A stretch of DNA of 45,810 nt from an uncultured Lentisphaerota bacterium (GTDB lineage: Bacteria; Verrucomicrobiota; Kiritimatiellia; RFP12; UBA1067): NCBI GenBank assembly GCA_900320855.1, contig ONTV01000001.1:1-45810 (forward strand). Direction: 5' to 3'. Positions within the stretch are counted from its first letter, which is position 1; the number at the start of each line of letters is the position of its first letter. Both the position numbers and the translations under genes were made by a program. The notes beneath the pieces are model-generated. The model ran no database searches. It was not told the DNA's origin and saw nothing but the letters and a program-made list of their open reading frames with translations. Of this stretch, positions 1 through 44,586 are shown one piece after another.

Positions 1-844
1 CGCGGCCGCCGTGCTTGGCCTCCCACTTCGCGAGTTTGGCGGCCTCCTTTTCGGCGCGGCGCGCCTCCTTGGCGGCGAGCTTCTCCTGGCGGATGCGCTC
101 CTTTTCCTCGGCGCGCTGGCGGCGCGCGGCTTCCTTCGCCGCGCGGGCGGCGGCGAGAGGGCCGTTAGGGGCGGAGTTAGGGGCGACTGAAGTCGCCCCC
201 TCCGAGAAGGGAGAAGTTGCCCCCTCCGAGAAGGGGTCGACTTCTTCCTTGCTCCTTGCTCCTTTCCCCAGCGCCCAGCGGAAGAGGGCGGCGAAGAAGT
301 CCGCGAGGTTTCGCGCGCCGACGGCGCCGACGAGCGAGAGGGCCAGGAGAATGACGACGAGGACGGCCGAGCCGAAGTCGCTCAGGAGCGGCGAAAGGCA
401 GCGCGTCATGATGAGGTAGCCGATGACGCCACCCGCGTCCGCGAGGTTGAGGTGGCGGGCGAGGGACGAAATGCCGTTCGCGTGCGCGCCGAGGACTTGC
501 AGGAGGCAGGCGACGGACGCGAGGAAGGCGGTGAACCAGATCTCGCGGCGGCCGGGGCGCATTCGGCGCCCGCGCACGAGGCAGAGCGCGGCGACGACGC
601 AGACGATCGGCACAATCCAGATCGCGAGGCCGAAGACGCGGTAGCCGTAGTAGGCGAAGCCGTCGCCGAGCGCGCCGATCCAGTTGTGCGAGGGCAGGGG
701 CGGGACGTTCAGCTCGGCGCGCGTGCGCCAATCGTAGGAGAGCAGCGCGCCCAGAGGAAAGAGCGCGAGCGGGAAGAGCAGCCAGGCGACGACGCTGCGC
801 CGCGTCTCGGCGCTGTCAGGGGTGCTGGAGGGCGGGTTTGTCAT
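1..844 (-). CDS. ftsK: DNA translocase FtsK/SpoIIIE, N-terminal membrane domain plus low-complexity linker (5' part only, runs off window start)
   Basis: Absent from the ORF track because it has no stop inside the window. I translated the minus strand from the ATG (complement of 842-844). It reads MTNPPSSTPDSAETRRSVVAWLLFPLALFPLGALLSYDW..NWIGALGDGFAYYGYRVFGLAIWIVPIVCVV..LADAGGVIGYLIMTRCLSPLLSDFGSAVLVVILLALSLVG, followed by a K/E/A-rich linker. The frame stays open to position 1. The four-TM pattern with G-rich loops is typical of the FtsK 4TM domain. Confidence 0.6.
   Translation of the reverse strand, partial: MTNPPSSTPDSAETRRSVVAWLLFPLALFPLGALLSYDWRTRAELNVPPLPSHNWIGALGDGFAYYGYRVFGLAIWIVPIVCVVAALCLVRGRRMRPGRREIWFTAFLASVACLLQVLGAHANGISSLARHLNLADAGGVIGYLIMTRCLSPLLSDFGSAVLVVILLALSLVGAVGARNLADFFAALFRWALGKGARSKEEVDPFSEGATSPFSEGATSVAPNSAPNGPLAAARAAKEAARRQRAEEKERIRQEKLAAKEARRAEKEAAKLAKWEAKHGGR
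164..266 (-). repeat. Three short tandem repeats inside the ftsK linker: 12-bp x2 (164-187), 24-bp x2 (195-235), 7-bp x3 (246-266)
   Basis: GTTAGGGGCGGA/GTTAGGGGCGAC; GCCCCCTCCGAGAAGGG at 195-211 and 219-235 (encodes PFSEGATS twice on the minus strand); TCCTTGC TCCTTGC TCCTTTC. Confidence 0.8.
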
Positions 845-971
845 GTGCGGATGCGCCGGACGCTCCGCCGACGGCGGAACTCTGCTTGACGGCGTGGTAG
901 AGGACGATGGCGAGGACGAGCGCGAGGAGCTTGATGCCCCAGTTGTCCGTCAGGAACGCGAGGCGCTTCAT
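816..971 (-). CDS. Small membrane-anchored ORF (51 aa) resembling only the N-terminal TM anchor of CdaR/YbbR-type cdaA partners
   Basis: Internal ATG of ORF 816..1784(-): MKRLAFLTDNWGIKLLALVLAIVLYHAVKQSSAVGG... Its start overlaps the cdaA stop (ATGA-type junction at 968-971) and its end overlaps the ftsK start by 29 nt. There are no YbbR repeats. Confidence 0.3.
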   Translation of the reverse strand: MKRLAFLTDNWGIKLLALVLAIVLYHAVKQSSAVGGASGASAHDKPALQHP

Positions 972-1792
972 GCGCGGCCTCCCTTCTTCAGGAAACGGGC
1001 CTGGACCTGGGCGAGCAGGCGGTTCGCCTTGCGCTCGCGGAACATGACCTTCGCGATCCAGCGCACGAGCGACGAAGCGCAGGCGGCGTCGCCCGCGTAG
1101 CGGATGAGCCGCCCGTTGTGGGCGACCGAAACGGCCCCCGTCTCCTCCGAGACGACGACGACGAGCGCGTCCGTCTCCTCGGAGAGGCCGACGGCCGCGC
1201 GGTGGCGCATGCCGCTGACGATGAGGTCCGGGTTGTTCGAGACGGGGAAGATGCAGTGCGCGGCGGCGAGCCGCCCGTCGCGCACCGTGACGCCGCCGTC
1301 GTGGAGCGGCAGGGGCGGCGTGAAGAGGCAGGTCAGGAGCTCGCGCGAGAACGTCGCGTTGAGCGGCACGCCCGTCTCCTCGTAGCTGCGCAGGCTGATG
1401 CCGCGCTCGAAGGCGATCAGCGCGCCCATGCGGCGGGCGGCGAGATGCAGGATCGCCTCGGCGACGTATTCGGGCGTCGCCGCGCCGTCCGGCCCGTACT
1501 TGCGCTTCTCGAGCGAGCCGAACGCGCCGACCTGGCTGAGGATGCGGCGGATCTCGGGCTGGAAGATGACGACCGTCGAGATCGCGAGGTAGACGAGCAG
1601 GCTCCGCAGGATGACGGAGAGGACGTCGAAATGGAAGACGAACGTGAAGAGCGTGAGTGCGGCGGCGAGCAGCCCCACGCCCATGAGGACCTGGCCGAAG
1701 CGCGAGCCGCGCGCGCGCTTCAGGATCGCGTAGATGACGATGTAGAGGATCGCGATCTGCGCGATCGCCGACAGATCGACCCACTCAGCCAT
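968..1792 (-). CDS. cdaA: Diadenylate cyclase CdaA (c-di-AMP synthase)
   Basis: 274 aa. An N-terminal triple-TM segment is followed by a DAC domain with GALIAFERG, PLHDGGVTV and GMRHRAAVGLSEETDALVVVVSEETG (the RHR motif). Confidence 0.9.
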   Translation of the reverse strand: MAEWVDLSAIAQIAILYIVIYAILKRARGSRFGQVLMGVGLLAAALTLFTFVFHFDVLSVILRSLLVYLAISTVVIFQPEIRRILSQVGAFGSLEKRKYGPDGAATPEYVAEAILHLAARRMGALIAFERGISLRSYEETGVPLNATFSRELLTCLFTPPLPLHDGGVTVRDGRLAAAHCIFPVSNNPDLIVSGMRHRAAVGLSEETDALVVVVSEETGAVSVAHNGRLIRYAGDAACASSLVRWIAKVMFRERKANRLLAQVQARFLKKGGRA

Positions 1793-1854
1793 GTGTCGCC
1801 GCCTCCGCGCCGTCTTGCGCGCGCTGCTGTTTCGTCTCGTATGCCATAGGCGGA

Positions 1855-1868
1855 ATTATACCAAAAAA
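1855..1868 (-). promoter_or_regulatory. Extended -10 promoter (minus strand TTTTTTGGTATAAT) for cdaA
   Basis: The reverse complement of 1855-1868 is TTTTTTGGTATAAT, about 60 nt upstream of the cdaA ATG. It belongs to the 12-member motif family in this window. Confidence 0.65.
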
Positions 1869-1983
1869 CGCGCGCGCTGCATTTGGGGTGTCCAGGCGGG
1901 CCTATTTCCGCTGGTTCTACTATCCGCTCGTCCTGCGCGCCGTCCAAGCCGCCTCGCGACGGGCGCCGCGAGGCGCAGGGGAA

Positions 1984-1996
1984 CTTATGGTATAAT
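1984..1996 (+). promoter_or_regulatory. Extended -10 promoter CTTATGGTATAAT for glgP
   Basis: TGGTATAAT at 1988-1996, 44 nt upstream of the glgP ATG and divergent from the cdaA promoter. Confidence 0.65.
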
Positions 1997-2040
1997 ATCT
2001 CCCCACAAGAACGAGAGGCACTTTGCCGAAAGAGAGACAG

Positions 2041-4497
2041 ATGGCTACGAAGAAGAAAGACCGCCGCGTCGAGATGTCCGTCGAGGGACTGAAGGACGAC
2101 TACGCCTGGCACCTGCGCTACACGCTCGCGAAGGACGACGCGCACACGACGCCGCGCGACCGCTACACCGCATTCGCGACAGCCGTCCGCGACCGAATCG
2201 TCGAGCGCTGGATCTCGACGCAGGAGGAGTACGGGCGCCAGAACACGAAGCGCGTCTACTACATGTCGCTCGAGTTCCTGATCGGGCGCCTCCTCGGCAA
2301 CAACGTCATCAACCTCAAGGCCGACCAGCTCTGCCGCGACGCGCTCCAGGACTTCGGCGTCAACTGGAACGACCTGCGCGACTACGAGACCGACGCGGGC
2401 CTCGGCAACGGCGGCCTCGGGCGGCTCGCCGCGTGCTACCTCGACTCGATGTCGACCCTCGACCTCGCGGGCATGGGGTATGGGCTGCGCTATGACTACG
2501 GCATCTTCCGCCAGCGCATCGTCGGCGGCAACCAGGTCGAGGAGCCCGACCACTGGCTCAAGGACGGCTATCCGTGGGAGATGGCGCGCCCCGAGTACGC
2601 GCAGCACGTCCACTTCGGCGGGCACGTCGAGTGCCGCACCGAGAACGGCCGCCAGACCTGGCACTGGGAGCCGGCCGAGACGGTGCAGGGCGTCCCCTAC
2701 GACCTGCCGATCGTCGGCTACCGCAACGCGGTGAACTCGCTCCGTCTCTGGTCGGCGAAGGCCGTCGACGACTTCGCGCTCGACAACTTCAACAAGGGCG
2801 ACTACGTCAAGGCCGTCGAGACGAAGGTCCTCGCGGAGAACCTGACGAAGGTGCTCTACCCGAACGACAACACGTCGGCCGGCAAGGAGCTTCGCCTCCG
2901 CCAGCAGTACTTCTTCGTGAGCTGCTCGCTGCAGGACATCCTGCGCCGCTACCGCCGCCTCAACCCGACGTGGGACGCGCTTCCGGAGAAGGTCTTCATC
3001 CACCTCAACGACACGCACCCGACGCTCGTCATCCCCGAGCTCATGCGCATCCTCATCGACCTTGAGGGGCTGGGCTGGGACCAGGCGTGGGACCTGACGC
3101 GCCGCGCGACGGGCTACACGAACCACACGATCCTCCAGGAGGCGCTGGAGAAGTGGCCGGTGCCGATGATGGAGCGGCTGCTGCCGCGCCACCTGCAGAT
3201 CATCTACGAGATCAACGGGCGCTTCCTCCAGAAGGTGAGCGCGCTTTATCCGGGCGACATCCAGAAGCTTCAGCGCATGTCCCTCATCGACGAGGGCGGC
3301 GTGCGCTCGGTGCGGATGGCGAACCTCTGCCTCGTCGGCACGTCGTCCGTGAACGGCGTCGCCGAGCTGCACACGAAGATCCTGAAGGAGAGCCTGTTCA
3401 AGGACTTCTACGAGCTCTGGCCGGAGAAGTTCCACAACGTGACGAACGGCATCACGCCGCGCCGCTGGCTCCTCAAGGCGAACCCGATGCTCGCGCAGCT
3501 CATCAGCGAGTCGATCGGCGAGAGCTGGATCACGCATCTCGACGAGCTCAAGGGGCTGGAGAAGTTCGCGAACGACGCGGGCTTCCTCGACGCGCTCGCG
3601 AAGATCAAGCGCTCCAACAAGGGCCAGCTCGCGGCTTGGACGCAGAAGAACCTCGGCATCGCGCTCAACCCCGACGCGATCTTCGACGTGCAGGTGAAGC
3701 GCCTGCACGAGTACAAGCGCCAGCTCCTGCTCGCGCTCTACATCATCGTCTTCTACAACCGCCTCCTGAACGACCCGACGTACGACCCGAAGCCGCGCCA
3801 GTTCATCTTCGCGGCGAAGGCGGCGCCCGGCTACTACATGGCGAAGCTCATCATCCGCTTCATCCACGGGATCGCGGGCGTCGTGAACGCGAACCCGAAG
3901 ACGCGCGACCGCCTGCAGGTCGCGTTCCTGCCCGACTACCGCGTCTCGCTCGCGGAGAAGATCATGCCGGCCTCCGAGGTCTCCGAGCAGATCTCGCTCG
4001 CGGGCATGGAGGCGTCGGGCACGGGCAACATGAAGTTCATGATGAACGGCGCGCTCACGCTCGGCACCTACGATGGCGCGAACGTCGAGATCAACCAGGA
4101 GGTCGGCGACGCGAACATGTTCCTCTTCGGCCTGCGGACCGAGGACGTCGCGCGCCTGCGCCCGACCTACGTCTCGCGCGACTACTACCGGAAGGACCCG
4201 GAGATCAAGCTCGCGCTCGACATGATCCGCGAGAACGTCTTCTCGCTCCTCGATCCGGGGCTGTTCGAGCCGATCCTGCGGAGCCTCCTGGACTACAACG
4301 ACTACTACATGCTCCTCGCCGACCTCAAGGACTACTGCCGCGCGCAGGATCTCGTCGACCGGACGTACCGCGACGCGAAGAAGTGGAACCGGATGTCGCT
4401 CGTCAACATCGCGCGCTCGGGCCGGTTCTCGTCCGACCGCGCGGTGATGGAGTACGCGAAGGACATCTGGCACGTCGAGCCCGTCACGTTCGCGTAG
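2041..4497 (+). CDS. glgP: Glycogen/maltodextrin phosphorylase
   Basis: ORF 2023..4497; the first ATG is at 2041 (MATKKKDRR). Conserved GLGNGGLGRLAAC and the PLP-lysine region EASGTGNMKFMMNGALTLGTYDGANVEI are present. Confidence 0.95.
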   Translation: MATKKKDRRVEMSVEGLKDDYAWHLRYTLAKDDAHTTPRDRYTAFATAVRDRIVERWISTQEEYGRQNTKRVYYMSLEFLIGRLLGNNVINLKADQLCRDALQDFGVNWNDLRDYETDAGLGNGGLGRLAACYLDSMSTLDLAGMGYGLRYDYGIFRQRIVGGNQVEEPDHWLKDGYPWEMARPEYAQHVHFGGHVECRTENGRQTWHWEPAETVQGVPYDLPIVGYRNAVNSLRLWSAKAVDDFALDNFNKGDYVKAVETKVLAENLTKVLYPNDNTSAGKELRLRQQYFFVSCSLQDILRRYRRLNPTWDALPEKVFIHLNDTHPTLVIPELMRILIDLEGLGWDQAWDLTRRATGYTNHTILQEALEKWPVPMMERLLPRHLQIIYEINGRFLQKVSALYPGDIQKLQRMSLIDEGGVRSVRMANLCLVGTSSVNGVAELHTKILKESLFKDFYELWPEKFHNVTNGITPRRWLLKANPMLAQLISESIGESWITHLDELKGLEKFANDAGFLDALAKIKRSNKGQLAAWTQKNLGIALNPDAIFDVQVKRLHEYKRQLLLALYIIVFYNRLLNDPTYDPKPRQFIFAAKAAPGYYMAKLIIRFIHGIAGVVNANPKTRDRLQVAFLPDYRVSLAEKIMPASEVSEQISLAGMEASGTGNMKFMMNGALTLGTYDGANVEINQEVGDANMFLFGLRTEDVARLRPTYVSRDYYRKDPEIKLALDMIRENVFSLLDPGLFEPILRSLLDYNDYYMLLADLKDYCRAQDLVDRTYRDAKKWNRMSLVNIARSGRFSSDRAVMEYAKDIWHVEPVTFA

Positions 4498-4530
4498 GGG
4501 GCTGCGGCGGAACGAATCGGAGAGTTGTCT

Positions 4531-4593
4531 TGAAATCTGAAATCTGAAATCTGGAATCTGAAATCCGAAATTTGAAATCTCAAATTTGAAATT
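4531..4593 (+). repeat. Heptamer tandem array, 9 units (TGAAATC x3, TGGAATC, TGAAATC, CGAAATT, TGAAATC, TCAAATT, TGAAATT)
   Basis: Read directly. It fills the glgP-proS spacer and ends 13 nt before the proS ATG. The start region itself (TGAAATG, 4608-4614) resembles a unit. Confidence 0.9.
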
Positions 4594-4606: not shown

Positions 4607-6322
4607 ATGAAATGGACTAAATCGCTCATCCAGACGCTCCGGGAGAATCCCGGCGACGCCGAAATCGACTCCCACAAGCTCATGATCCGCGCCGGCCTCA
4701 TGAAGAAGGTCGCGGGCGGCCTCTACTCCTACCTGCCGCTCGGCATGCGCGTTCTGAACAAGGTCACGAACATCGTCCGCGAGGAGATGGACCGCGCGGG
4801 CGCGCTGGAGATCGTCCTGCCGATCCTCCAGCCGGCCGAGCTCTGGGAGACGTCGGGCCGCTGGGAGGCGATGGGCCCCGGCATGTTCCGCCTGAAGGAC
4901 CGCGCGGCGCACGACTACGCGCTCTCGCCGACGGCCGAGGAGGTCGTGACGGACGTCGTCAACGGCGTCGTCTCCTCCTACCGCCAGCTGCCCGTCACGG
5001 TCTACCAGATCCAGTGGAAGTTCCGCGACGAGATCCGTCCGCGCTTCGGCCTCATGCGCTCGAAGGAGTTCCTGATGAAGGACGCCTACTCGTTCGACAC
5101 GTCGCTGGAGGCGGCGGACGCGAGCTACAAGGCGATGTTCGACGCCTACACGCGCGTCTTCGCGCGCTGCGGGCTCAAGGCGTATCCGGTCGAGGCCGAC
5201 ACGGGCGACATCGGCGGCAAGTTCAGCCACGAGTTCCACGTGCTCGCCGACGCGGGCGAGGACGGCATCGCGTTCTGCGACGGCTGCGGCTACGCGGCGA
5301 ACCTGGAGAAGGCGGAGCGGCAAATAATCGAATCGCCGAATGGTCGAATGGTCGAATGCGGGCCGTGCTTCCCCGCGCCGACGCCCGCGAAGTCGATTGA
5401 GGAGATGGTCAAGTTCTTCGGCGTGCCCGCGACGAAGATGGTCAAGACGCTCGTCTACGTCGCGGACGGCAAGCCCGTCCTCTTCTGCGTGCGCGGCGAC
5501 CGCGACCTGAACGAGGTGAAGGCGAAGCATCTCGTCGGGGCGAAGAAGTCCGCGCTCGCCGACTTCGAGACCGTGCAGAAGGTGACGGGCGCGCCCGTCG
5601 GCTACGCGGGCCCGGTCAAGCCGGCGGCGGACGTGCCGATCTACGCCGACCTCGACCTCAAGGGCGCGAAGGGCATGATCACCGGCGGCAACCTGCCGGA
5701 CGAGGTTGACCTCAACGACGTCGACTTCGACCGCGACTGCACGATCGCCGGCTACGCCGACCTCGTGGTCGTCCGCGACGGCGACGTCTGCCCGCACTGC
5801 GGCAAGCCGCTCGTCATCAAGCGCGGCATCGAGGTCGGGCACGTCTTCAAGCTCGGCACGAAGTACACGGACGCCTTCAAGGCGACGTTCAAGAACGCGG
5901 AGCTGAAGGAGAACGTCATGGTGATGGGCTGCTACGGCATCGGCGTCTCGCGCACCGTGCAGGCCGTCATCGAGCAGTGCCACGACAAGGACGGCATCGT
6001 CTGGCCCGCGTCCGTCGCGCCGTACGAGGTCGTCATCGAGAACCTCGACCCCGACAAGGCCGAGGTCACGAAGGTCGCGGACGAGCTGGAGGCCGCGCTG
6101 GAGGCGAAGGGCGTGGACGTGATCGTCGACGACCGCGCGGAGCGTCCCGGCGTCAAGTTCAAGGACGCCGACCTCATTGGCTTCCCTGTGCGCGTCGTCG
6201 TCGGCGCGAAGGGGCTGGCGAACGGCGGCGTCGAGGTGAAGCGCCGCTGCGAGGACAAGTCGCAGACGAAGGTCGTGCCGCCGGCCGAGGCCGTCGCGGC
6301 GATTCTCGCCGCGCGCGGCTGA
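4607..6322 (+). CDS. proS: Prolyl-tRNA synthetase, bacterial type with editing insertion
   Basis: 571 aa. MKWTKSLIQTLRENPGDAEIDSHKLMIRAGLMKK, class II motifs, and an INS domain between motifs 2 and 3. Confidence 0.95.
   Translation: MKWTKSLIQTLRENPGDAEIDSHKLMIRAGLMKKVAGGLYSYLPLGMRVLNKVTNIVREEMDRAGALEIVLPILQPAELWETSGRWEAMGPGMFRLKDRAAHDYALSPTAEEVVTDVVNGVVSSYRQLPVTVYQIQWKFRDEIRPRFGLMRSKEFLMKDAYSFDTSLEAADASYKAMFDAYTRVFARCGLKAYPVEADTGDIGGKFSHEFHVLADAGEDGIAFCDGCGYAANLEKAERQIIESPNGRMVECGPCFPAPTPAKSIEEMVKFFGVPATKMVKTLVYVADGKPVLFCVRGDRDLNEVKAKHLVGAKKSALADFETVQKVTGAPVGYAGPVKPAADVPIYADLDLKGAKGMITGGNLPDEVDLNDVDFDRDCTIAGYADLVVVRDGDVCPHCGKPLVIKRGIEVGHVFKLGTKYTDAFKATFKNAELKENVMVMGCYGIGVSRTVQAVIEQCHDKDGIVWPASVAPYEVVIENLDPDKAEVTKVADELEAALEAKGVDVIVDDRAERPGVKFKDADLIGFPVRVVVGAKGLANGGVEVKRRCEDKSQTKVVPPAEAVAAILAARG
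5322..5359 (+). repeat. Octamer array inside proS: AAATAA + TCGAATCG CCGAATGG TCGAATGG TCGAATGC
   Basis: Read directly. It translates in frame as QIIESPNGRMVEC. The unit and the AAATAATCGAAT flank match the array at 30010-30087. Confidence 0.85.
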
Positions 6323-8550: not shown

Positions 8551-9783
8551 ATGGGCATGAGCGAAGACGTCAAGGCATATGTCCGGGCGCGGGCGCAGCG
8601 CGCGCGCGCCGCCGCCGGCGAACTGGTGCGGCTTTCGGCGTGCGAGAAGAACGCCGCGCTGGAGCGGGTCGCCGCCGCGCTCGAATCGCGGCGCGGCGAG
8701 ATCGCGGCCGCGAACGCGTGCGACGTCGCGCAGGCGAAGGCGGCGGCACTCGCGGAGGCGCTGGTCGATCGTCTGACGCTGACCGAGTCGCGCTTCGACG
8801 CAATGGTCGCGGGCGTCCGCACGGTGGCGGCTCTCCCGGATCCCGTCGGCGAGACGCTGGACGTGCGGGAGCGTCCGAGCGGCATCACGATCCGCAAGGT
8901 GCGCGTGCCGTTCGGCGTCGTCGCGGTCGTGTTCGAGAGCCGTCCGAACGTCTTCGTCGATACGGCGGCGCTCTGCCTCAAGACGGGCAACGCCGTCGTC
9001 CTGCGCGGCGGCAAGGAGGCGATCGAAACGAACCGCGCGCTGGCGGCGGCCGTCCGGGACGGCCTGGGCGACTTGGCGGAGGCGGTGCAGTTCATCGACA
9101 TTCTCGACCATGCGGCCGTGACGGAGCTTGTGCGGGCCGTGGGACTCGTCGATGTCGCGATCCCGCGCGGCGGCGAGCGCCTGATCCGCGCGATGTGCGA
9201 GGCGGCGCTCGTGCCGGTGCTGAAGCACTACAAGGGCGTCTGCCACGTCTACGTGGACGACAAGGCCGATCTCGCGATGGCGCTGTCGATCCTCGACAAC
9301 GCGAAGACGCAGCGGCCCGGCGTCTGCAACGCGGCCGAATGCCTGCTCGTCCACGAACGGCTTGCGCCGATCTTCCTGCCGATGGTGCGGGCCTGGGCGG
9401 CGGACAAGGGGGTTTTGCTCCACGAGGGGACGGACGGCGACGCGGCGGTTGACTGGGAGCGGGAGTTCCTGGCGCTGGAGATGAACGTCGGCATCGTCCG
9501 GGACGTCCGCGCGGCGGTCGCGCACATCAACCGCTACGGGTCGCATCACTCCGACTGCATCGTCACGAACGATGCGGCGCGCGCGCGGGAGTTCCTGCGC
9601 GACGTCGATTCGGCGTGCGTCTACCACAACGTCTCGACGCGCTTCACGGACGGCGGCGAGTTCGGCATGGGCGCGGAGATCGGCATCTCGACGGACAAGC
9701 TGCACGCGCGCGGCCCGATGGGGCTGGAGGAGCTGACGACCTACAAGTACCTCGTCACGGGCGACGGGATCGTGAGAAAGTAG
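8551..9783 (+). CDS. proA: Gamma-glutamyl phosphate reductase
   Basis: ORF 8359..9783, trimmed to the ATG at 8551 just after the upstream stop. MGMSEDVKAYVRARAQ..., with the aldehyde dehydrogenase-like NAAECLLVHE and the HHSDCIVT ending typical of ProA. Confidence 0.9.
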   Translation: MGMSEDVKAYVRARAQRARAAAGELVRLSACEKNAALERVAAALESRRGEIAAANACDVAQAKAAALAEALVDRLTLTESRFDAMVAGVRTVAALPDPVGETLDVRERPSGITIRKVRVPFGVVAVVFESRPNVFVDTAALCLKTGNAVVLRGGKEAIETNRALAAAVRDGLGDLAEAVQFIDILDHAAVTELVRAVGLVDVAIPRGGERLIRAMCEAALVPVLKHYKGVCHVYVDDKADLAMALSILDNAKTQRPGVCNAAECLLVHERLAPIFLPMVRAWAADKGVLLHEGTDGDAAVDWEREFLALEMNVGIVRDVRAAVAHINRYGSHHSDCIVTNDAARAREFLRDVDSACVYHNVSTRFTDGGEFGMGAEIGISTDKLHARGPMGLEELTTYKYLVTGDGIVRK

Positions 9784-9811
9784 TAAGGAGAAAGGAGTAA
9801 GGAGTAAGTGA
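9784..9811 (+). repeat. Heptamer array TAAGGAG AAAGGAG TAAGGAG TAAGTGA (three tandem Shine-Dalgarno cores)
   Basis: Read directly between the proA stop (TAG 9781-9783) and the GTG start of the OMP gene (9808). Confidence 0.85.
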
Positions 9812-10326
9812 GGAAGGCCTCATTTTTTCTCGTGTCTCTCGTGACCCTCTCGTCCCTCGCGTCATTTCCGGCCGTTGCCGTCGATGATCCGTCGTCGGCC
9901 CCAGCTTACCTTGGCGCGGCGGGGACGCTGACGTTGCCGCAGGGCGGGTCGCGCCTGCGTCGGTTGGGCGGCGCGGCCGTGCGCGGTGGCGTCTACCTCT
10001 CCGACTTCTGGGCGGTCGAGGGCGACGTCGCGTGGCAGGAGAACGCGGCGGGGCTGGGCGTCGATGCGCTGGTGCACGTGCAGGCCTGGTCGGGCTATGG
10101 CGACCTCTTCGGCTATTCGGCGTTCGATCCGTTCGTCACGGCTGGGGCGCGCGGCTGGCTCGTCTCGGACGGCGACGGGCAGGTCGGGCCGCAGATGGGC
10201 CTGGGCGCGTTCTATCACCTTGACGACAACTGGTCGCTGCGGGCCGAGGCGAACGTGACGCTTGGCGTTGAGACGCGGGTCGAGGCGATCTACACGATTT
10301 CGGTTGGCGTTCAGTATGGCTTTTGA
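9808..10326 (+). CDS. Small outer-membrane beta-barrel protein (OmpW/OprF-N-like porin family)
   Basis: 172 aa. It has a signal peptide MRKASFFLVSLVTLSSLASFPAVA, alternating amphipathic strands, and a C-terminal ...VGVQYGF ending in an aromatic Phe. Confidence 0.7.
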   Translation: MRKASFFLVSLVTLSSLASFPAVAVDDPSSAPAYLGAAGTLTLPQGGSRLRRLGGAAVRGGVYLSDFWAVEGDVAWQENAAGLGVDALVHVQAWSGYGDLFGYSAFDPFVTAGARGWLVSDGDGQVGPQMGLGAFYHLDDNWSLRAEANVTLGVETRVEAIYTISVGVQYGF

Positions 10327-29592: not shown

Positions 29593-30009
29593 ATGGCGTC
29601 TTTCAACAAAGTGATCCTGATGGGCAACCTCACGCGTGACCCGGACGTGCGCGTGACCGGGACGAGCGGCATGAAGGTCGCGCGGCTTGGTCTCGCCGTC
29701 AACGAGCGCCGGAAGGACCGCAACGGCAACGTGCAGGACTTCCCCGTGTTCGTCGACGTCGACGCCTGGGACAAGCTGGCCGAGCTTTGCGGGCAGTACC
29801 TTTCGAAGGGAAGCTCCATTCTCGTCGATGGGCGTCTTCAGATGGACACCTGGGAAAAGGACGGCGTCAAGCACCAGAAGCTCAAGGTTCGCGCGAGCAC
29901 GATCAAGTTCCTGCCGAAGGGCGACCGCCTTGCGGGCGGCCCGAAGCCCGTCGTGGAGCAGACCGCGCCCGAAACGGCCGAGAGCGATCCCGCCGACATA
30001 CCGTTCTGA
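29593..30009 (+). CDS. ssb: Single-stranded DNA-binding protein
   Basis: ORF 29464..30009, trimmed to the ATG at 29593. MASFNKVILMGNLTRDPDVR, with the acidic tip ...DPADIPF. Confidence 0.93.
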   Translation: MASFNKVILMGNLTRDPDVRVTGTSGMKVARLGLAVNERRKDRNGNVQDFPVFVDVDAWDKLAELCGQYLSKGSSILVDGRLQMDTWEKDGVKHQKLKVRASTIKFLPKGDRLAGGPKPVVEQTAPETAESDPADIPF

Positions 30010-30087
30010 AAATAATCGAATGGTCGAATGTTCGAATGATCGAATGGTCGAATGATCGGATGGTCAACGGACAGTAAGATCGAATCG
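30010..30087 (+). repeat. Octamer array: AAATAA + TCGAATGG TCGAATGT TCGAATGA TCGAATGG TCGAATGA TCGGATGG TCAACGGA, plus an isolated TCGAATCG at 30080-30087
   Basis: Read directly. It starts at the base after the ssb stop and ends 22 nt before the rpsR ATG. Confidence 0.9.
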
Positions 30088-30109: not shown

Positions 30110-30340
30110 ATGGCTTTCAAGAAATCCAACAGCTCGGCCGGCGAGGAGTTCGCCGCGAGGAAGCGTCCGCCGCTCCGCAAGGGCGACGCGATCGACGTCA
30201 ACGACATCGAGACGCTCAAGTACTACATCACCGACTACGGCAAGATCCTGCCGGCGCGCATCACCGGCGTGACCTCGCAGCAGCAGCGCCAGATCCGCCA
30301 GGGCGTCAAGCGCGCCCGCAACATGGGGCTCATGGCCTAA
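30110..30340 (+). CDS. rpsR: 30S ribosomal protein S18
   Basis: 76 aa. [41 protein letters not shown]. Confidence 0.95.
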   Translation: [76 protein letters not shown]

Positions 30341-30830: not shown

Positions 30831-32656
30831 CCAAGCTCGAGGAAAAATGGAAACTCACGCGGGAGACGGTCGGCAACGGCCGTCTCTCCGTAATCATGCC
30901 CCTTTACCGCCTCGCCGCCGAGGCCGAGGGGAATCTGCGCGCCGTCGCCGCGCTCTTCGAGCGGCATGGCGTCGAGGCGGAGCTCGTTCCGGTCGATGAC
31001 GGCAGCGGCGACGGCACGGCGGAGATCCTGCGCGGCATCCGGCTGGACGGCTTTTCGCACGTCACGCTGAAGAGCGTGGTCTGTCCGCGCAACGGCGGCA
31101 AGGGGGCGGCGCTCCGCGCGGGCTTCGAGGCGTCGAGCGGGCGCTACGTGCTTCTGCTTGACGGCGACCTGGACATCAATCCGCAGCAGACGCCGCACTT
31201 CTTCGAGCAGCTGGTCATCCGCGCGGCCGACATCGTCGTCGGCTCCAAGCGCCATCCGAAGTCCGTCGTGCAGTACCCGTGGCACCGACGGCTCGCGAGC
31301 GTCTGCTATTTCGCGTTCGTGCGCCTGGCGTTCGGGCTTCGGATCACCGACACGCAGACGGGCATGAAGCTCTTCAAGCGGGAGGTCCTCGGCCCGGCAC
31401 TCGACCGGATGCTCGTCAAGACCTACGCCTTTGACCTCGAGGTTCTCGCCATTGCCGCGCAGCGGGGCGCGAAGATCGTCGAGGCGCCCGTCGTCATCCG
31501 CTTCGGCGACAAGTTCGGTGCGCTGCGGGCGGAGACCGTCCGGCGGATGATGCTGGACACGCTGGCCGTCTTCTACCGGCGGCGGATTCTCGACTACTAT
31601 TCGAAATGCCTCGTTCCGCCGAAGCTCGACCGTGCGCCGCTCGTCTCGGTCGTGATCGCCTGCCCGAAGACGAGCTGGATGCTGGACGAGTGCCTGGACG
31701 CCCTTCGGGGGCAGTCGTACGCGAACTGGGAGGCGATTGTCCTGCCGGACGCGGCGGAGGGGGGGCGGACGGCGGACGCGGGGCGCGTTCGCTTTCTCCC
31801 GACGGGAAAGGTGCGCCCCGCCGAAAAGCGCAACCTCGGCATTCGCGCGGCGAAGGGCGAGATCGTCGCGTTCATCGACGACGACGCCTACCCGGAGGCG
31901 CATTGGCTCGAATACGCCGTCAAGTACTTCGGCGATCCGGGCATCGGCGCGGTTGGCGGGCCGGGCGTGACGCCGCCCGGCGACGTGCGCCTGGCCCGGC
32001 TGGGCGGCCGCGTCTACGAAAGCCGCCTCGTCTCCGGCACCTACAGCTATCGCTATCGCGCGGGCGGCGTCCGGATGGACGTCGACGACTATCCGAGCTG
32101 CAACCTCCTCGTGCGCAAGGACGTCCTTGACCGGATCGGCGGCTACCGGACTGACTTCTGGCCGGGCGAGGACACGCTTCTCTGCAAGGACATCGTTGAC
32201 CGGAGCTGGAAGCGGATCGTCTACGATCCGTGGGTCATCGTCTACCACCACCGCCGGCCGCTCTTCCGTCCGCACCTGCGCCAGCTCGGCCGCTACGGCT
32301 TTCATCGCGGCTATTTCTGCAAGCGCTTCCCGTCGAACTCGCGGCGGCTGTCGTATTTCATTCCGACGCTCTTCGACGCCTACCTGGCCGGGTTCGCGCT
32401 GCTCGCGGGGCTGGCTGCGCTCGGCTTCGTGCCGAGGCTGGCCGTGGACGTCTGCGGCGCGCCGCTGGCGCTTTACCTCGCGCTTGTGGCGGCCGCGTCG
32501 TTCAGCCTGCACCCCGTGGACGACCTGCTGACGGCCCTTGGCATCGTCCTGAGCCACGTCTGGTACGGCCTCCAGTTCCTGCGCGGGCTCTGCGCGGCGA
32601 AGGCGCCGTGCGAATACATCGGCGCCGACCACGCGGGCGGCGGCAATTTGGTATAA
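30827..32656 (+). CDS. Membrane-associated tandem family-2 glycosyltransferase (two GT2 domains + C-terminal TM segments)
   Basis: 609 aa. Domain 1: LSVIMPLYR..VDDGSGDGT..LLLDGDLD. Domain 2: VSVVIACPK..AIVLPD..FIDDDAYP. The GTG start overlaps the rplI stop, and the start is uncertain. Confidence 0.75.
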   Translation: MTKLEEKWKLTRETVGNGRLSVIMPLYRLAAEAEGNLRAVAALFERHGVEAELVPVDDGSGDGTAEILRGIRLDGFSHVTLKSVVCPRNGGKGAALRAGFEASSGRYVLLLDGDLDINPQQTPHFFEQLVIRAADIVVGSKRHPKSVVQYPWHRRLASVCYFAFVRLAFGLRITDTQTGMKLFKREVLGPALDRMLVKTYAFDLEVLAIAAQRGAKIVEAPVVIRFGDKFGALRAETVRRMMLDTLAVFYRRRILDYYSKCLVPPKLDRAPLVSVVIACPKTSWMLDECLDALRGQSYANWEAIVLPDAAEGGRTADAGRVRFLPTGKVRPAEKRNLGIRAAKGEIVAFIDDDAYPEAHWLEYAVKYFGDPGIGAVGGPGVTPPGDVRLARLGGRVYESRLVSGTYSYRYRAGGVRMDVDDYPSCNLLVRKDVLDRIGGYRTDFWPGEDTLLCKDIVDRSWKRIVYDPWVIVYHHRRPLFRPHLRQLGRYGFHRGYFCKRFPSNSRRLSYFIPTLFDAYLAGFALLAGLAALGFVPRLAVDVCGAPLALYLALVAAASFSLHPVDDLLTALGIVLSHVWYGLQFLRGLCAAKAPCEYIGADHAGGGNLV

Positions 32657-32657
32657 T
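32647..32657 (+). promoter_or_regulatory. Extended -10 promoter TTTGGTATAAT; tyrS appears leaderless
   Basis: TATAAT is at 32652-32657 and the ATG at 32666, leaving an 8-nt gap and no room for an SD. The GT2 stop TAA (32654-32656) lies inside the hexamer. Confidence 0.6.
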
Positions 32658-32665
32658 GTTGCGCT

Positions 32666-33910
32666 ATGAAACTGATTGAAGAGCTGAAGGCTCGCGGACT
32701 CGTCGAGGCGCTGACGGATCCCGAGATCGAGAAGGCACTGGAGCAGCCGATGACGGTCTACTGCGGGTTTGACCCCTCGGCGCGTTCGCTCCAGGCCGGG
32801 AACCTCGTCTCCATCATCGTCCTCAAGCGCTTCCAGCAGGCGGGCCACAAGGTCATCGCGCTCGTCGGCGGCGCGACGGGGCTCATCGGCGACCCGTCGG
32901 GCAAGTCGGCCGAGCGCAACATGCAGACGGTCGAGCAGGTCGCCGCGAACAAGGCGGGCATCCGCGAGAACCTCGCGCGCATCCTCGACTTCGACGGGCC
33001 GAACGCGGCCGTGATGGTCGACAACTACGACTGGTACAAGGGCACGAGCGCGATCGAGTTCCTGCGCGACATTGCGATCAACTTCCGCGTGCCGCAGATG
33101 CTCGCGAAGGAGTCCGTGAAGAAGCGCCTGGAGGCGCGCGAGGGCGCGCTCACGTTCACCGAGTTCTCCTACCAGATTCTCCAGGGCAACGACTTCCTCC
33201 ACCTCTACGACACGTACGGCTGCCAGATGGAGGTCGGCGGGGCCGACCAGTGGGGCAACATCACGGCGGGGACGGATCTCGTGCGGCGGATGCGCGGCAA
33301 GACGGCCTACGGCCTCACGTTCCCGCTTCTGCTCGACTCGACGGGCAAGAAGTTCGGCAAGTCGGAGGGCAACGCGCTCTTCCTCAACGGCGAGATGACG
33401 CCCGTCTTCGACTGGTACCAGTACTTCCTGCGCACGCCGGACGCGGACGTGATCCGCTACCTGAAGGTCTTTTCGCTGCGTTCGCTGGACGAAATCGCCG
33501 CGCTGGAGGCCGAGATGAAGGCGCATCCCGAATCGCGCATTCCGCAGAAGGCGCTTGCCGAGGAGATTACGCGGCTCGTCCACGGCGAGGAAGGCCTCCG
33601 GAAGGCCCAGGCGGCGACCGAGGCCCTGTACGCGAAGAAGACGGCGGCGGACGTCGCGAAGGCCGAGAACGTGCCGAGCGCGACGGTCGCGCTCGCGGAC
33701 TGCGTCGGCAAGGCGGTCTTCGCCGTCGCGGCGGCGGCCGGGATGTTCAAGTCGAACGGCGAGGCGCGTCGGCTGGCCCAGCAGGGCGGGCTTTCGCTCA
33801 ACGACGCGAAGGTCGACGAGAAGCGTCTCTTCGCGGCGGACGACGTGAAGGACGGCGTGGCCGTCCTGCGCTCCGGCAAGCGGAACTACTTCGTCCTTCG
33901 CTTCGCGTAG
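32666..33910 (+). CDS. tyrS: Tyrosyl-tRNA synthetase
   Basis: 414 aa. [44 protein letters not shown], KFGKS, and a C-terminal S4-like domain. The HIGH position reads QAGN. Confidence 0.9.
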   Translation: [414 protein letters not shown]

Positions 33911-41467: not shown

Positions 41468-41485
41468 GCCTAACCAAAGGGTCAC

Positions 41486-41535
41486 CCTCGCGCGCGTCAT
41501 CCGCGCGTGACGGCGCGGGCGCGCGAGGCGTTTTT
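41486..41535 (+). terminator. Rho-independent terminator (10-bp GC stem CCTCGCGCGC/GCGCGCGAGG, then CGTTTTT)
   Basis: The arms at 41486-41495 and 41519-41528 are perfectly complementary. The T-tract is also the T-tract of the next promoter. Confidence 0.7.
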
Positions 41536-41543
41536 GGTATAAT
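41531..41543 (+). promoter_or_regulatory. Extended -10 promoter TTTTTGGTATAAT; leaderless U32 gene
   Basis: TATAAT is at 41538-41543 and the ATG at 41552, leaving an 8-nt gap. Confidence 0.65.
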
Positions 41544-41551
41544 CTCCCGCC

Positions 41552-42799
41552 ATGGAACGCCCTGAGATCTTGGCCCCGGCGGGGGACTTCACGTGCCTTC
41601 AGGCCGCGCTGGACGCAGGTGCCGATGCCGTCTACTTCGGCCTCGGCACGTTCAACATGCGCGCGCGGAGCGGCGTCAACTTCACGGAGGCGGACTTGCC
41701 CGAGATCGCGCGCCGCTGCGGGCGCGTGAAGCGCTACCTGACGCTCAACGCCATCCTGTTCGAGGACGAGGCGGACGCGGTCGAGCGGACGATCTGCGCG
41801 GCGAAGCCCTACGTGGACGCCTTCATCGTCTCCGACTGGGGCGTCATCGCGCTCTGCAAGAGGCACGGCGTCGCGTTCCACGTCTCGACTCAGATGTCGG
41901 TCTCGAATTCGGCGGCCGTGCGCTTTCTCGCGGCGCAGGGCGCGTCGCGCGTCGTCCTCGCGCGCGAGTGCACGCTCCGCGAAGTCGCGGCGATCCACGC
42001 GAAGACGGGCGTCGAGCTCGAATGCTTCGTCCACGGCGCGCAGTGCGTCGCCGAATCGGGGCGCTGCTTCATGAGCCAGGACGTCTTCGGCAAGAGCGCC
42101 TGTCGCGGCGAATGCGTCCAGCCCTGCCGGCGGAAGTTCCTCGTGCAGGCGGTCGATTTCTACGAGGACGCGCAGGGCGCGCCCGTGCACGAGGGCCAGG
42201 CGGCCTACGTCGTCGAGCCGCACACCGTCCTCTCGGCGCGCGACCTCTGCTCGCTCGGCTTCGTCGACAGGCTCATGGCGGCCGGCATCGCCTCCTTCAA
42301 GATCGAGGGCCGCGCGCGCAACGCGAACTACGTGAAGACGGTCGTCGCCGCGTACCGGCGGGCGGTGGACGCCGTGTGCGCGGGGACGTACACGCCCGCA
42401 CTCGTTGCGGAGCTGACGGCGTCCGTGAAGACGGTCTTCCACCGCGCCTTCTCGGATGGCCTCTACTTCGGGCGGCCGGGCGTCGACCAGTTCACGCGGA
42501 CGGAGGACTCCGAGGCGACGACGGTGAAGCGCCACATCGGCGTCGTCATCGACTATTTCCTCAAGGCCGGCATTGCGCAGGTGAAGGTGCAGGACCACGC
42601 GATCCGCCCCGGCGACCCGATCCAGATCCACGGGCCGACCACCGGCGTCCAGGAGCTCGTCGTGGGCGAGCTCCATCGCGACGCGGAACGTCCGTCCGTC
42701 GGCGAGAAGGGCACGTGGGTCACGTTCCGCGCGCCGCGCTGCCGCGTCGGCGACAAGGTCTTCTTCGTCGAATCGCGCGGGGCACCTCCGTCGGCGTAA
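41552..42799 (+). CDS. Peptidase U32 family protein
   Basis: 415 aa. EILAPAGDFTCLQAALDAGADAVYFG, ECFVHGAQCVAESGRCFMS, FKIEGR. Confidence 0.85.
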   Translation: MERPEILAPAGDFTCLQAALDAGADAVYFGLGTFNMRARSGVNFTEADLPEIARRCGRVKRYLTLNAILFEDEADAVERTICAAKPYVDAFIVSDWGVIALCKRHGVAFHVSTQMSVSNSAAVRFLAAQGASRVVLARECTLREVAAIHAKTGVELECFVHGAQCVAESGRCFMSQDVFGKSACRGECVQPCRRKFLVQAVDFYEDAQGAPVHEGQAAYVVEPHTVLSARDLCSLGFVDRLMAAGIASFKIEGRARNANYVKTVVAAYRRAVDAVCAGTYTPALVAELTASVKTVFHRAFSDGLYFGRPGVDQFTRTEDSEATTVKRHIGVVIDYFLKAGIAQVKVQDHAIRPGDPIQIHGPTTGVQELVVGELHRDAERPSVGEKGTWVTFRAPRCRVGDKVFFVESRGAPPSA

Positions 42800-42813
42800 T
42801 CCGGCGGACAGAA

Positions 42814-42825
42814 TTTTGGTATAAT
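42814..42825 (+). promoter_or_regulatory. Extended -10 promoter TTTTGGTATAAT; leaderless
   Basis: TATAAT is at 42820-42825 and the ATG at 42834, leaving an 8-nt gap. Confidence 0.65.
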
Positions 42826-42833
42826 TGGCGAAA

Positions 42834-44009
42834 ATGCAGAAAGATTTCCAAGTCGCCGTCTTCGAGGGCGGAGCGCTCCGCGTTGTCGCGTCCGGCCATC
42901 CCGGGCGCGAGGCCGTGCTGGCGTTGCCGACGAGCCGCCTGCTCGTGAAGATGGTGCGCGTGCCGGCGGGGGAGGACGCGGTTGCGGTCGCGACGCCCGT
43001 TCTGCAGGCGATGAGCCCGTTCCCCGACGAGCCGCTGACGGTGACGTGCGAGACGGTGCGCGAGACGGCGGAGGGCGCGGTCGTCCTGGCGGCGGCGCTG
43101 CCCGAAAGCGCGGCGGACGACATTGCCGAGGCGCTGGACGCGCAGAAGCTCAGCGTGACGCGCATCGACCTCCTGGCGCTCGGCGCGCTGCGCGACGTCT
43201 GGGGCCGCTTCGACGCGGCGGACGGAAAGCGGCGGCTCGTGCGCCTCACGTCGGCGGACGGCTGTACGCTCCTTGTCCTGGACGGCGACATGCCCGTGGC
43301 CGTCCGTGGTCTTGCCGAGGCGGACGATCCGGTGCGCGAGGAGATGCTGCTTTTGCTGGAGGCGGAATCGTTCGGCGGGCCGAAGCCGCTGGCGGAGACG
43401 CTTGCGGCCGAAGTGACGGACGCGGCGGTCGAAGGCGTCGCCGAGCGGTCGCTCGACGCGGCGGCGCTCAATGCGCTTCCGGCGAGCTGGCGCGAGGTGC
43501 TGGAGGAGACGCGCTTCAAGAAGCGGCTCGTCCGCAATCTCTCGGTCGCCGTCGGGCTCTGGCTCCTGGTCATGGGCGTCCTTTTCGGTGTGCCGGTCGC
43601 CTACGGCTTCCTGACGGACCATCAGAAGGGCCTTTCGCGCCAGCACGCGCGGCAGTACCGCCAGGTCAGCGACAAGAAGAAGAAGGTCGACGTCTTCAAG
43701 GCGTATTCCGACCACGGGCGCGGCGCGCTGGAGGTCATGAAGGCGGTGTCGGACCGCCTGCCCGCCGGAATCACGCTTTCGGGCTGGAACTACGACCGCG
43801 TGAAGGGGCTTCGTCTGTCGGGCGAGGCCGACACCGACACCGAGGTCTACGAGTTCAAGAACGCGATGGAGGCCCTGGCGTTCGGCGAGGACGAGGAGGC
43901 GCCGCGCATCTTCGCGACCGTCACGCTCGGCCGTCTCAACATGATGCGCGGCAAGCAGCGCTTTGACCTGGACCTCGGTTTCGAGACGCCGGAGGAGGGA
44001 GGGGAATGA
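42834..44009 (+). CDS. GspL / PilM-PilN-like assembly platform protein (cytoplasmic domain + TM + PilN-like periplasmic domain)
   Basis: ORF 42825..44009, trimmed to the ATG at 42834. A TM segment (LSVAVGLWLLVMGVLFGVPVAYGF) is followed by a coiled segment and the pattern LPAGITLSGWNY...GLRLSGEADTDTEVYEFKNAM typical of PilN/GspL C-termini. Confidence 0.55.
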   Translation: MQKDFQVAVFEGGALRVVASGHPGREAVLALPTSRLLVKMVRVPAGEDAVAVATPVLQAMSPFPDEPLTVTCETVRETAEGAVVLAAALPESAADDIAEALDAQKLSVTRIDLLALGALRDVWGRFDAADGKRRLVRLTSADGCTLLVLDGDMPVAVRGLAEADDPVREEMLLLLEAESFGGPKPLAETLAAEVTDAAVEGVAERSLDAAALNALPASWREVLEETRFKKRLVRNLSVAVGLWLLVMGVLFGVPVAYGFLTDHQKGLSRQHARQYRQVSDKKKKVDVFKAYSDHGRGALEVMKAVSDRLPAGITLSGWNYDRVKGLRLSGEADTDTEVYEFKNAMEALAFGEDEEAPRIFATVTLGRLNMMRGKQRFDLDLGFETPEEGGE

Positions 44010-44539
44010 ACGCGATGACGCTCAAGCAGAAGGCGGTCTTCGCCGTCCTGGCGGTCGTCGGCCTCTACGCCGTCGCCGCGCTCACGTGGTTTCTCTCGGC
44101 GGAGTCGGCGTGGAAGAAGGCGGCGCGGCGCTACGAGCAGGCGAAGGCGACGTACGCGAAGGAGGAGCGGCTCATCGCCGACAAGGCGAAGTGGGACGCG
44201 GCCTACGAGGCCGAGAAGGCCGCGATGCCGACGTTCGCGGCGGGCCGGGCGACGGACACGACGTGGCTGCAGAAGATGGGCGAGGTCGCGAACCGGAACC
44301 TCATCCAGATCTCGCAGCGCGGCACGCAGAAGGAGAAGCTTGAGATCGACGACGTGACGGTGCTGCCGATCGACGCGAGCTGGGAGGGCTCGCTGGAGGC
44401 GCTCGTCAAGTTCCTCTACGAGCTGGAGAATTCGAAGGAAGGGCTTTTCGACGTCGCCGAGCTGGACTTCAAGCCGAGCGCGAAGAAGGGCTATCTGCGC
44501 GGGACGTTCACGCTCAACTGCGCGTACATGAGGGAGTAG
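44006..44539 (+). CDS. PilO/GspM-like assembly protein
   Basis: 177 aa. An N-terminal TM is followed by a coiled coil, then ...[41 protein letters not shown], the PilO-type fold pattern. The start overlaps the upstream stop (ATGA). Confidence 0.55.
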
Positions 44540-44586
44540 GTGGAAAGGTGGAAGGGCGGAAAGGTGGAAAAGTAAAGAAAGGGAAT
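44539..44586 (+). repeat. Octamer array GGTGGAAA GGTGGAAG GGCGGAAA GGTGGAAA, decaying into AGTAAAGA AAGGGAAT
   Basis: Read directly. It starts at the last base of the pilO-like stop and ends 2 nt before the ATG at 44589. Confidence 0.85.

Follow-up and report, generated by a model that had tools for sequence, protein, structure and literature searches.

Short tandem arrays with units of 7-8 nt stand out as low-GC islands in a 45.8-kb stretch of contig ONTV01000001.1 (hereafter the window, meaning the whole stretch at its full length), both in the gaps between closely spaced genes and in frame inside two genes. Arrays of hypermutable 7-9 nt units are a feature of the gut Kiritimatiellae clade to which this DNA belongs. 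We read them, on balance and with some reserve, as slippage-prone simple-sequence repeats of the long simple sequence repeat (LSSR) or variable-number tandem repeat (VNTR) type, which are kept where extra length does little harm.

An earlier note on this DNA had listed seven loci of short-period arrays. Tandem Repeats Finder (TRF) recovers six of them as clear low-GC arrays with a period of 7-8 nt at the coordinates of that note, and no low-GC array of period 5-10 arose in 200 dinucleotide-preserving shuffles of the window, against the six observed. The seventh, at 246-264, is marginal, with copies too few (2.7) to count as an array. That the arrays form low-GC islands is confirmed (GC 0.27-0.55 versus 0.68 for the window), and the stop and start positions on which the note had based their stop-proximal placement are correct on direct reading. 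The loci are the following.

246-264, minus strand: TCCTTGC, 2.7 copies, score 38, inside an FtsK-like open reading frame (ORF); marginal.
4531-4592 (feature to 4596): TGAAATC, 8.9 copies, in the 109-nt glgP-proS gap (TRF and sequence).
4495-4497, 4531 and 4607: the glgP stop codon TAG, the start of the array and the proS ATG (read from the sequence).
5328-5358 (feature 5322-5359 with an AAATAA head), plus strand: TCGAATGG, 3.9 copies, in frame in proS (TRF).
9774-9817: GAGTAAG (equivalent to TAAGGAG), 6.1 copies, at the junction of an aldehyde-dehydrogenase-like gene and an outer-membrane-protein (OMP) beta-barrel gene (TRF).
27904-27975 by TRF (feature 27896-27975, about 10 units), plus strand: TCCAAACG, 8.9 copies, a CCAAAC-family octamer in frame in hydF.
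30016-30065 (feature 30010-30087): TCGAATGG, 6.2 copies, in the ssb-rpsR gap (TRF).
44538-44570 by TRF: AGGTGGAA, 4.1 copies, in the gap between an ORF and a secretin-type gene.

Four of the arrays thus occupy promoter-less stop-to-start gaps and two lie in inter-domain linkers, where they keep the proS and hydF reading frames open. The proS array (5322-5359) encodes QIIESPNGRMVEC at residues ~239-251 of prolyl-tRNA synthetase (ProRS), in the linker directly before the editing domain, and the hydF array covers HydF residues ~230-257, the linker between the dimerisation and tetramerisation domains. Among the gap arrays, the one at 9774-9817 overlaps both the stop codon TAG of the aldehyde-dehydrogenase-like gene (9781-9783) and the GTG start of the OMP gene (9808). 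The ssb stop codon TGA (30007-30009) abuts the array at 30010-30087, which consists of an AAATAA head, (TCGAATGN)6 and degenerate units, precedes the rpsR ATG at 30110 and lies inside the rplY-rpsF-ssb-rpsR-rplI unit. The feature at 44538-44586, (GGTGGAAA)~4 plus degenerate units, lies between ORF 44006-44539, whose stop codon TAG (44537-44539) abuts it, and the secretin-type ATG at 44589.

An extended -10 motif, TGGTATAAT (up to one mismatch), occurs 12 times in the window versus 0.23 expected, always at or beside a gene boundary on the upstream side of a start codon; it is absent from all four array gaps, in agreement with the earlier note. The four gaps also contain no sigma-70-like site, and their sole plus-strand terminator-like match is a weak one at 9806-9825 that overlaps the OMP start. 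Because nearly all other window gaps of at least 40 nt carry TGGTATAAT, as read from gene and motif coordinates, the arrays account for the long promoter-less gaps of the window. This distribution of motifs supports the note's suggestion that the arrays lie inside transcription units.

Evidence on the nature of the arrays comes from strains of the same species, for which we retrieved loci by exact-protein look-ups; their flanking genes are 98-100% identical to those of the window. At the glgP-proS junction, these strains carry two unrelated classes of allele. One, found in five assemblies with few point differences, is (TGAAATC)~9 in a 109-nt gap after a TAG stop codon. The other is (ATTCGAYC)n after a TAA stop codon, its unit family being the reverse complement of the TCGAATG family, and its gaps of 69, 77, 77, 85 and 93 nt correspond to 5, 6, 6, 7 and 8 units, with one further variant of 68 nt. 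Contigs that encode an identical S18 have ssb-rpsR gaps of four lengths: 100 nt, as in the window; 84 nt, shorter by exactly two units and found in four samples; 58 nt, with an array that is degenerate and richer in GC; and 24 nt, without an array. Since alleles at both junctions differ by whole units, we regard the arrays as slippage-prone. A comparison of copy numbers among strains had been proposed in the earlier note.

Whole arrays also come and go. Strain L241 lacks the proS array and has a ProRS of 568 amino acids with TVPAADFAPC at the site, and in a sister strain lineage the central units of the hydF array differ and the gene is 6 nt longer; no out-of-frame allele of either coding array was seen among the strains compared. 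The 44538 array is present only in the window and in L233. It is absent from nine of ten strains, which have the identical upstream protein and a 4-nt gap (TGA GTTT ATG) in its stead. Comparison of the window with L227-L236 places this array in a replaced patch of ~121 nt (44534-44651), common to the window and L233, that takes in the stop codon together with the gap and ~35 codons at the beginning of the secretin gene, and also alters the secretin signal peptide. Its flanks are 99.7% identical upstream and about 96% identical downstream, and the patch looks like a short recombination tract ending at the array. Two independent assemblies, L225 and L226, carry an identical copy of the 9774 array. 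At ~1% flanking divergence, every comparable array differs.

The arrays are therefore dispensable, given the 24-nt ssb-rpsR gaps, the strains without the 44538 array, and the absence of the proS array from L241 and from several sister species. They are interchangeable, they change far faster than their flanks, and they are replaceable, because two unrelated families are allelic at glgP-proS and a third family is found there in related species.

That replacement is also seen between species, where the glgP and proS flanks align at 92-94% identity whereas the gap does not align: in L003-L007, the alignment ends at the glgP stop codon and restarts at the proS start codon. In L001 and L002 the gap holds TGAAATC relics; in L003 and L007 it holds (CCCAAACCT)8 or (CAAACCTTC)4, before which stands an inverted 9-mer element. 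L004 has three TCGAATG units in reverse complement, and L005 and L006 are without an array there. At the proS coding site, a TCGAATSG array is common to L003 and L004, L001 has a GC-enriched copy of the same length, and L005 and L006 have (GGAAGAA)3 instead; L002, L007, L008 and L009 lack the array and carry a presumably ancestral alanine-rich segment, with a GCG run in L007 and L008. In these last two loci, the GCG-rich run (codons ~239-248) stands beside a 9-nt direct repeat (GAGCCGTGC followed by GGGCCGTGC or CCGCCCTGC), and the site that repeatedly acquired arrays was accordingly already of low complexity and prone to insertions and deletions. Array decay is visible as GC-richer, degenerate copies in L001 (proS), L090 (ssb-rpsR) and L081 (hydF). 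In L001 and L002, synteny ends at ~7189, and the 9774 junction lies outside the compared range.

Some relatives carry inverted pairs of arrays of the same unit around a short GC hairpin or loop (L003 ~9830-9921; L007 ~9850-9954; L037 1797-1912 and 7073-7193, the latter followed by a TGGTATAAT promoter; L150 3972-4136; L151 5303-5511; L028 13415-13490). Judged by their sequence, such pairs would form long imperfect hairpins. A 9-mer family, GACAGGATT / CACGGATTT, is common to L003, L007, L008, L022 and L059.

We propose a life cycle in which an array arises at a site, replication slippage lengthens or shortens it by whole units, recombination between lineages exchanges it as a short patch, and GC-biased substitution finally erodes it. 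Slippage would be the motor of this cycle and selection its filter. Arrays would persist at two kinds of site: the handful of bases that separate a stop codon from the next ribosome-binding site at tight operon junctions, and flexible inter-domain linkers, provided that the length changes, on balance, by a multiple of three. If the arrays affect coupling, mRNA processing or downstream translation, they would do so incidentally. They would serve no dedicated function, and the operons do not need them in order to work.

Placement across the clade was surveyed in 1.13 Mb of Kiritimatiellae loci, with genes called by a heuristic based on GC at third codon positions. This set includes ten OIYX01 metagenome contigs (77-87% nucleotide identity to clade loci) that were fetched by the TCGAATG pattern and whose TCGAATG arrays were left out of the family statistics. 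TRF finds 72 low-GC arrays, with periods of 8 nt (42), 7 nt (22), 9 nt (7) and 6 nt (1). Fifty-eight of them are intergenic and 14 coding (p = 3e-21 against a conservative coding fraction of 73%), at a median of 9 nt from the upstream stop codon and 31 nt from the next start codon. Where both flanks were assigned (42 arrays), they are co-directional in 39 cases; a few of these pairs of flanks are one and the same ORF and were later counted as coding. Array density is patchy among species, and there are almost none in the Verrucomicrobiota loci listed. The units had been described as differing from locus to locus, but they belong to a few families that recur at unlinked sites: TCGAATG, CCAAAC, GGTGGAA, GAGTAAG and TCCTTGC are all found at other clade loci in both orientations, TCCTTGC as 4.4 copies in L120.

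A metagenome scan for TCGAATG returned at least 120 contigs, which span GC of 0.29-0.70 and unrelated organisms. Many contigs from unrelated environments (among L091-L210, for example L156, L122, L141 and L161) carry TCGAATGN and often other 7-8 nt arrays as well, with 11 arrays in 6.6 kb in L156, and array-rich genomes seem to be widespread and under-described. There is no sign that TCGAATG is a universally favoured unit: in viral contigs, the TCGAATG-family octamer had 0 matches versus 5 and 9 for two scrambled 8-mers, so that arrays of any arbitrary octamer occur at a background rate.

Several features of the clade arrays weigh against local slippage as the whole story. Pairs of arrays with the same unit (at most one mismatch, in any rotation or on either strand) number 70, whereas permuted units lead one to expect 14; some of the 70 are orthologous sites. 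Units without G or without C make up 41 of 58, versus 18 expected, and AT-rich arrays lie within coding sequence of 68% GC. In Kiritimatiellae, nearly every TCGAATG array follows immediately on (G)AAATAA and closes with degenerate units of GGG type. The GAAATAA head was not found among 122 TCGAATG arrays listed from other organisms (as judged from the most frequent head hexamers and 60 examples), which are flanked by plain degenerate units. Moreover, among the intergenic arrays with both flanking genes called, 34 of 36 lie in gaps without TGGTATAAT and two in gaps with it, a bias that might stem from a role at the RNA level or from a mechanism linked to stop codons. The head, the recurrence of families and the bias in composition are the main residue that local slippage alone leaves unexplained.

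These same features make a case for small, polar, dispersed elements, in which a module of head and array is copied or inserted by a dedicated or templated process and slippage only resizes it afterwards; candidate processes are microhomology-mediated template switching from existing arrays and the activity of an unknown polymerase or reverse transcriptase. We hold this to be unlikely. In its favour, the GAAATAA head and GGG-type tail recur at about 17 of 19 unlinked Kiritimatiellae TCGAATG sites, coding sequence included, and both TCGAATGG copies of the window (proS and ssb-rpsR) carry the AAATAA head. Different families substitute for one another at one junction, and in proS two different arrays took the place of the ancestral sequence at one site instead of just interrupting it. 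Young arrays are AT-rich and become richer in GC later, and relatives hold tandem head-array modules as well as the inverted pairs around GC hairpins. However, no transposase, integrase or reverse transcriptase is recognised by Pfam among the window ORFs, inspection of the window arrays revealed no target-site duplications or terminal inverted repeats, and the 44538 array can be derived from a local GAGGGAA seed. Junction alleles are common to several species, and recombination of old alleles could mimic repeated insertion. The evidence on the head also comes mostly from the contigs of a single metagenome, and those contigs had been picked out by the array pattern itself.

The shared head and the replacement of families nonetheless keep a templated or mobile origin in view, at a low probability. 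Its boldest form, which we regard as a long shot, would be a kind of micro-mobile DNA, with a fixed head (for example, GAAATAA), a 7-9 nt array and a degenerate tail, written beside stop codons and into low-complexity coding linkers by a templated process. If true, it would explain the swaps between families, the AT-rich arrays in GC-rich essential genes and the shared head in several species.

The location in promoter-less stop-to-start gaps could also suggest cis-acting RNA elements that tune the downstream cistron of a GC-rich polycistronic transcript, whether as standby or re-initiation spacers of little structure, as Shine-Dalgarno sites in multiple copies or as single-stranded stretches at which RNases enter. 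Thirty-eight of the 72 arrays are essentially unstructured (predicted minimum free energy, MFE, above -1 kcal/mol), and G or C is missing from most units. In the 9774 array, AAGGAG Shine-Dalgarno-like motifs follow one another and finish at the start codon, and TCGAATGA units, as read from the sequence, make chains of ATG...TGA mini-frames through ATGA overlaps. Against this stand the dispensability and interchangeability of the arrays among strains of one species, the use of both orientations in the same context, the proximity to the stop codon and not to the start, and the presence of the same families within coding sequence. Nor does folding help: arrays overall have more stable predicted folding than their own shuffles, the commonest family included (TCGAATG-family arrays reach a predicted MFE between about -6 and -16 kcal/mol), and the real units show no less folding than permuted versions of them. 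Stop triplets in the units are not above what composition predicts. We consider such a role improbable, and a required spacer or re-initiation function, which the earlier note had raised, is unlikely in view of strains that do without the array or have an unrelated one.

Two narrower ideas were rejected. Selection of unit order against RNA structure fails, as idealised arrays fold slightly more on average than arrays of permuted units. General seeding of arrays by duplication of a stop codon and Shine-Dalgarno sequence fails as well (stop triplets in 16 of 33 sense-strand units versus 18 expected); for the 9774 and 44538 arrays in particular, such a seed is plausible.

The limited repertoire of units common to the species of the clade, and a period constant at 7-9 nt, would also be expected of clustered binding sites, each 7-8 nt unit being recognised by one sequence-specific DNA- or RNA-binding protein within a regulatory or structural network; such a binder would be, for example, a cold-shock or S1-type OB-fold protein or a nucleoid protein. 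MacGregor (2015, PMC4679880) makes the same proposal for the TAACTGA arrays and points to the binding of heptamer repeats by CspB. With at least six unrelated unit families in one genome, positions that are not conserved even within a species, decay without apparent constraint and no candidate binding protein identified, we think this quite improbable.

The whole-unit variation among natural strains, together with the position of two arrays ahead of envelope genes (OMP and secretin), recalls contingency loci, in which slippage acts as a stochastic switch or rheostat of adjacent genes. The earlier note had mentioned such a mechanism, and its slippage-prone part stands, but not an on/off switch: no allele disrupts a reading frame or changes a promoter, none of the arrays is placed between promoter elements, the neighbours are mostly housekeeping genes (proS, rpsR and hydF), and the units are longer than in classical switches. 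We hold this very unlikely.

Finally, repeats can be mishandled by metagenome assembly, and the earlier note had allowed for assembly or sequencing artefacts. The chance of this is negligible. Identical alleles come from several samples and different assemblers (five recoveries of the 109-nt allele, two of the 77-nt allele and four of the 84-nt allele), independent assemblies (L225/L240, L083 and L239) give the same arrays down to the base, the arrays are not as long as common reads and k-mers, and the in-frame arrays leave their genes open.

The surroundings of the arrays are unremarkable. The window has nearly all its genes on the plus strand, and its content by Pfam is ordinary housekeeping, in the following order.

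Start of the window, minus strand: an ftsK-like gene and dacA.
After dacA: glgP, proS, an ABC permease gene, a GDSL lipase gene, the aldehyde-dehydrogenase-like gene and the OMP beta-barrel gene.
After the OMP gene: folD, secY, a two-component pair, UDG, acrB, nusB and ribD.
After ribD: an aroC fusion, a malic enzyme gene, rhaA, rhaT, pth and hydF.
After hydF: rplY-rpsF-ssb-rpsR-rplI, a GT2 gene, tyrS, lptF/G, lpxA and a Mur ligase gene.
After the Mur ligase gene: ABC components, a U32 peptidase gene, two unknown ORFs, the start of the secretin-type gene and trpA.

No mobile-element gene was found in the window, where the ORFs with Pfam matches are all housekeeping, no tRNA or tmRNA was found in it, and Rfam covariance models gave no match at gathering thresholds over its whole length. 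Its ProRS is 97-75% identical to proteins of human and animal gut metagenome-assembled genomes labelled Kiritimatiellae, Kiritimatiellaeota or 'Lentisphaeraceae', and a protein look-up has no exact match on record. Contigs bearing a ProRS 77-87% identical to that of the window are also filed as Alistipes, Gemmiger, Azospirillum, Lachnospira, Faecalibacterium and Methanomethylophilaceae (L008, L012, L014, L018, L065 and L067), and are probably mis-binned in those genome records.

Three further observations concern individual genes. At 189-235, adjoining the TCCTTGC repeat, a perfect-frame 24-bp tandem duplication (PFSEGATS twice) lies in the linker that follows the four-transmembrane domain of the FtsK-like protein. 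At 32649-32668, 41535-41554 and 42817-42836, TGGTATAAT ends exactly 8 nt before an ATG (of tyrS, the U32 peptidase gene and ORF 42834, respectively), an arrangement also seen in relatives, for example upstream of proS in L012, and one that, on motif spacing, would imply leaderless or near-leaderless mRNAs. The ORF at 44589-44951 joins the secretin signal peptide in frame to the C-terminal end of TrpB (junction near 44762), followed by trpA, whereas L233 is 99.97% identical to the window up to 44762 and then continues as a normal secretin gene; the junction is chimeric, a product of the assembly, or else marks a real deletion or fusion where a short sequence is shared.

How 7-9 nt tandem repeats arise and what they do has been a question since they were first seen in cyanobacteria, and the bacteria rich in them are scattered. 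The population evidence available here from metagenomes is unusually clear, with two unrelated arrays allelic at one junction and a series of 5-8 units. In practical terms, the variability of the arrays offers high-resolution strain markers for this organism in gut metagenomes. It also counsels caution, as AT-rich islands in GC-rich operons should not be read as regulatory elements, and differences in protein length in ProRS, HydF and secretin-type genes call for similar care.

The earlier note knew of no described class of element that matched these arrays, yet several match in kind. The closest in definition are the LSSRs of Mrazek, Guo & Shah (2007), which, as summarised in PMC4679880, have units of 5-11 nt, most commonly heptamers, are attributed to polymerase slippage and are scattered among Burkholderia, Xanthomonas, actinobacteria and cyanobacteria. 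Measured against that summary, the Kiritimatiellae arrays have the same head-to-tail organisation, with 7-9 nt units inside the 5-11 nt range, lengths beyond those expected by chance from composition, a mainly non-coding location in a GC-rich genome, and whole-unit changes in copy number consistent with polymerase slippage. They differ from the class so outlined in that octamers are at least as common as heptamers and that units that are not a multiple of three also occur in frame inside essential genes, and Kiritimatiellae were not part of that survey.

In placement, the arrays most resemble the Xanthomonas (GGGAATC) and Nostoc (GGGGAYT) arrays (Rehm et al. 2015, PMC4692102), which are ~90% intergenic, mostly between co-oriented ORFs, lie 0-50 nt from the upstream stop codon or overlap it, occupy both strands with some inverted pairs, and vary in length and sequence between close relatives in a high-GC host. 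The arrays described here are likewise mostly intergenic, stop-proximal and flanked for the most part by co-oriented genes in a GC-rich host; they too use both strands, form some inverted pairs and differ between close relatives. There, however, one dominant G-tract unit forms G-quadruplexes, whereas here there are several unrelated and mostly AT-rich units, and TGAAATC, TCGAATGG, TAAGGAG, TCCAAACG and GGTGGAAA contain no GGG run. Locations are relatively conserved there, whereas presence, family and copy number vary within one species here. The stop-codon-proximal placement common to the Xanthomonas arrays and ours, together with the shared head, offers clues to how such repeats are seeded.

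The TAACTGA arrays of marine Beggiatoaceae, some cyanobacteria and Bacteroidetes also occupy tight gaps, including those of ribosomal-protein operons (MacGregor 2015, PMC4679880). Short units in tight gaps and ribosomal-protein operons, occasional copies in ORFs and the candidate explanations raised (translation, or a binding protein) are shared with our arrays. In that system, a single unit is present in 2-6 copies, in forward orientation and immediately before the start codon, where it covers the ribosome-binding site, whereas here many units in both orientations lie closer to the stop codon; the TAACTGA unit itself is absent from the TRF output for the window and the clade.

Compared with the phase-variable simple-sequence repeats of host-adapted pathogens, our arrays share slippage-driven variation in copy number among strains. 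They differ in having units of 7-9 nt versus 1-5 nt, in lying neither in promoters nor at the 5' ends of coding sequences, in the lack of frame-breaking alleles, and in their mostly housekeeping neighbours. Two other classes may be compared. Clustered regularly interspaced short palindromic repeats (CRISPR) are not what the window arrays are, since their units of 7-9 nt are contiguous and without spacers. With respect to miniature inverted-repeat transposable elements (MITEs) and repetitive extragenic palindromic (REP) elements, the window arrays are free of inverted repeats and duplications, while unlinked TCGAATG sites have the polar head and relatives the inverted pairs.

The short tandemly repeated repetitive (STRR) sequences of cyanobacteria, reportedly heptanucleotide repeats described by Mazel and colleagues in 1990, have units such as CCCCAGT and are found in heterocystous cyanobacteria. 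As with the arrays reported here, a few families of short units are spread in tandem arrays through non-coding DNA within a single lineage; unit sequences and phylum are different, which places the Kiritimatiellae arrays outside that group. Three tandem heptanucleotides are on record for Calothrix PCC 7601 (PMC4692102). In the literature library searched, no paper was found to mention both Kiritimatiellae and tandem repeats. The class of repeat is thus already described, and the Kiritimatiellae, gut-associated and uncultured, are a lineage newly added to it.

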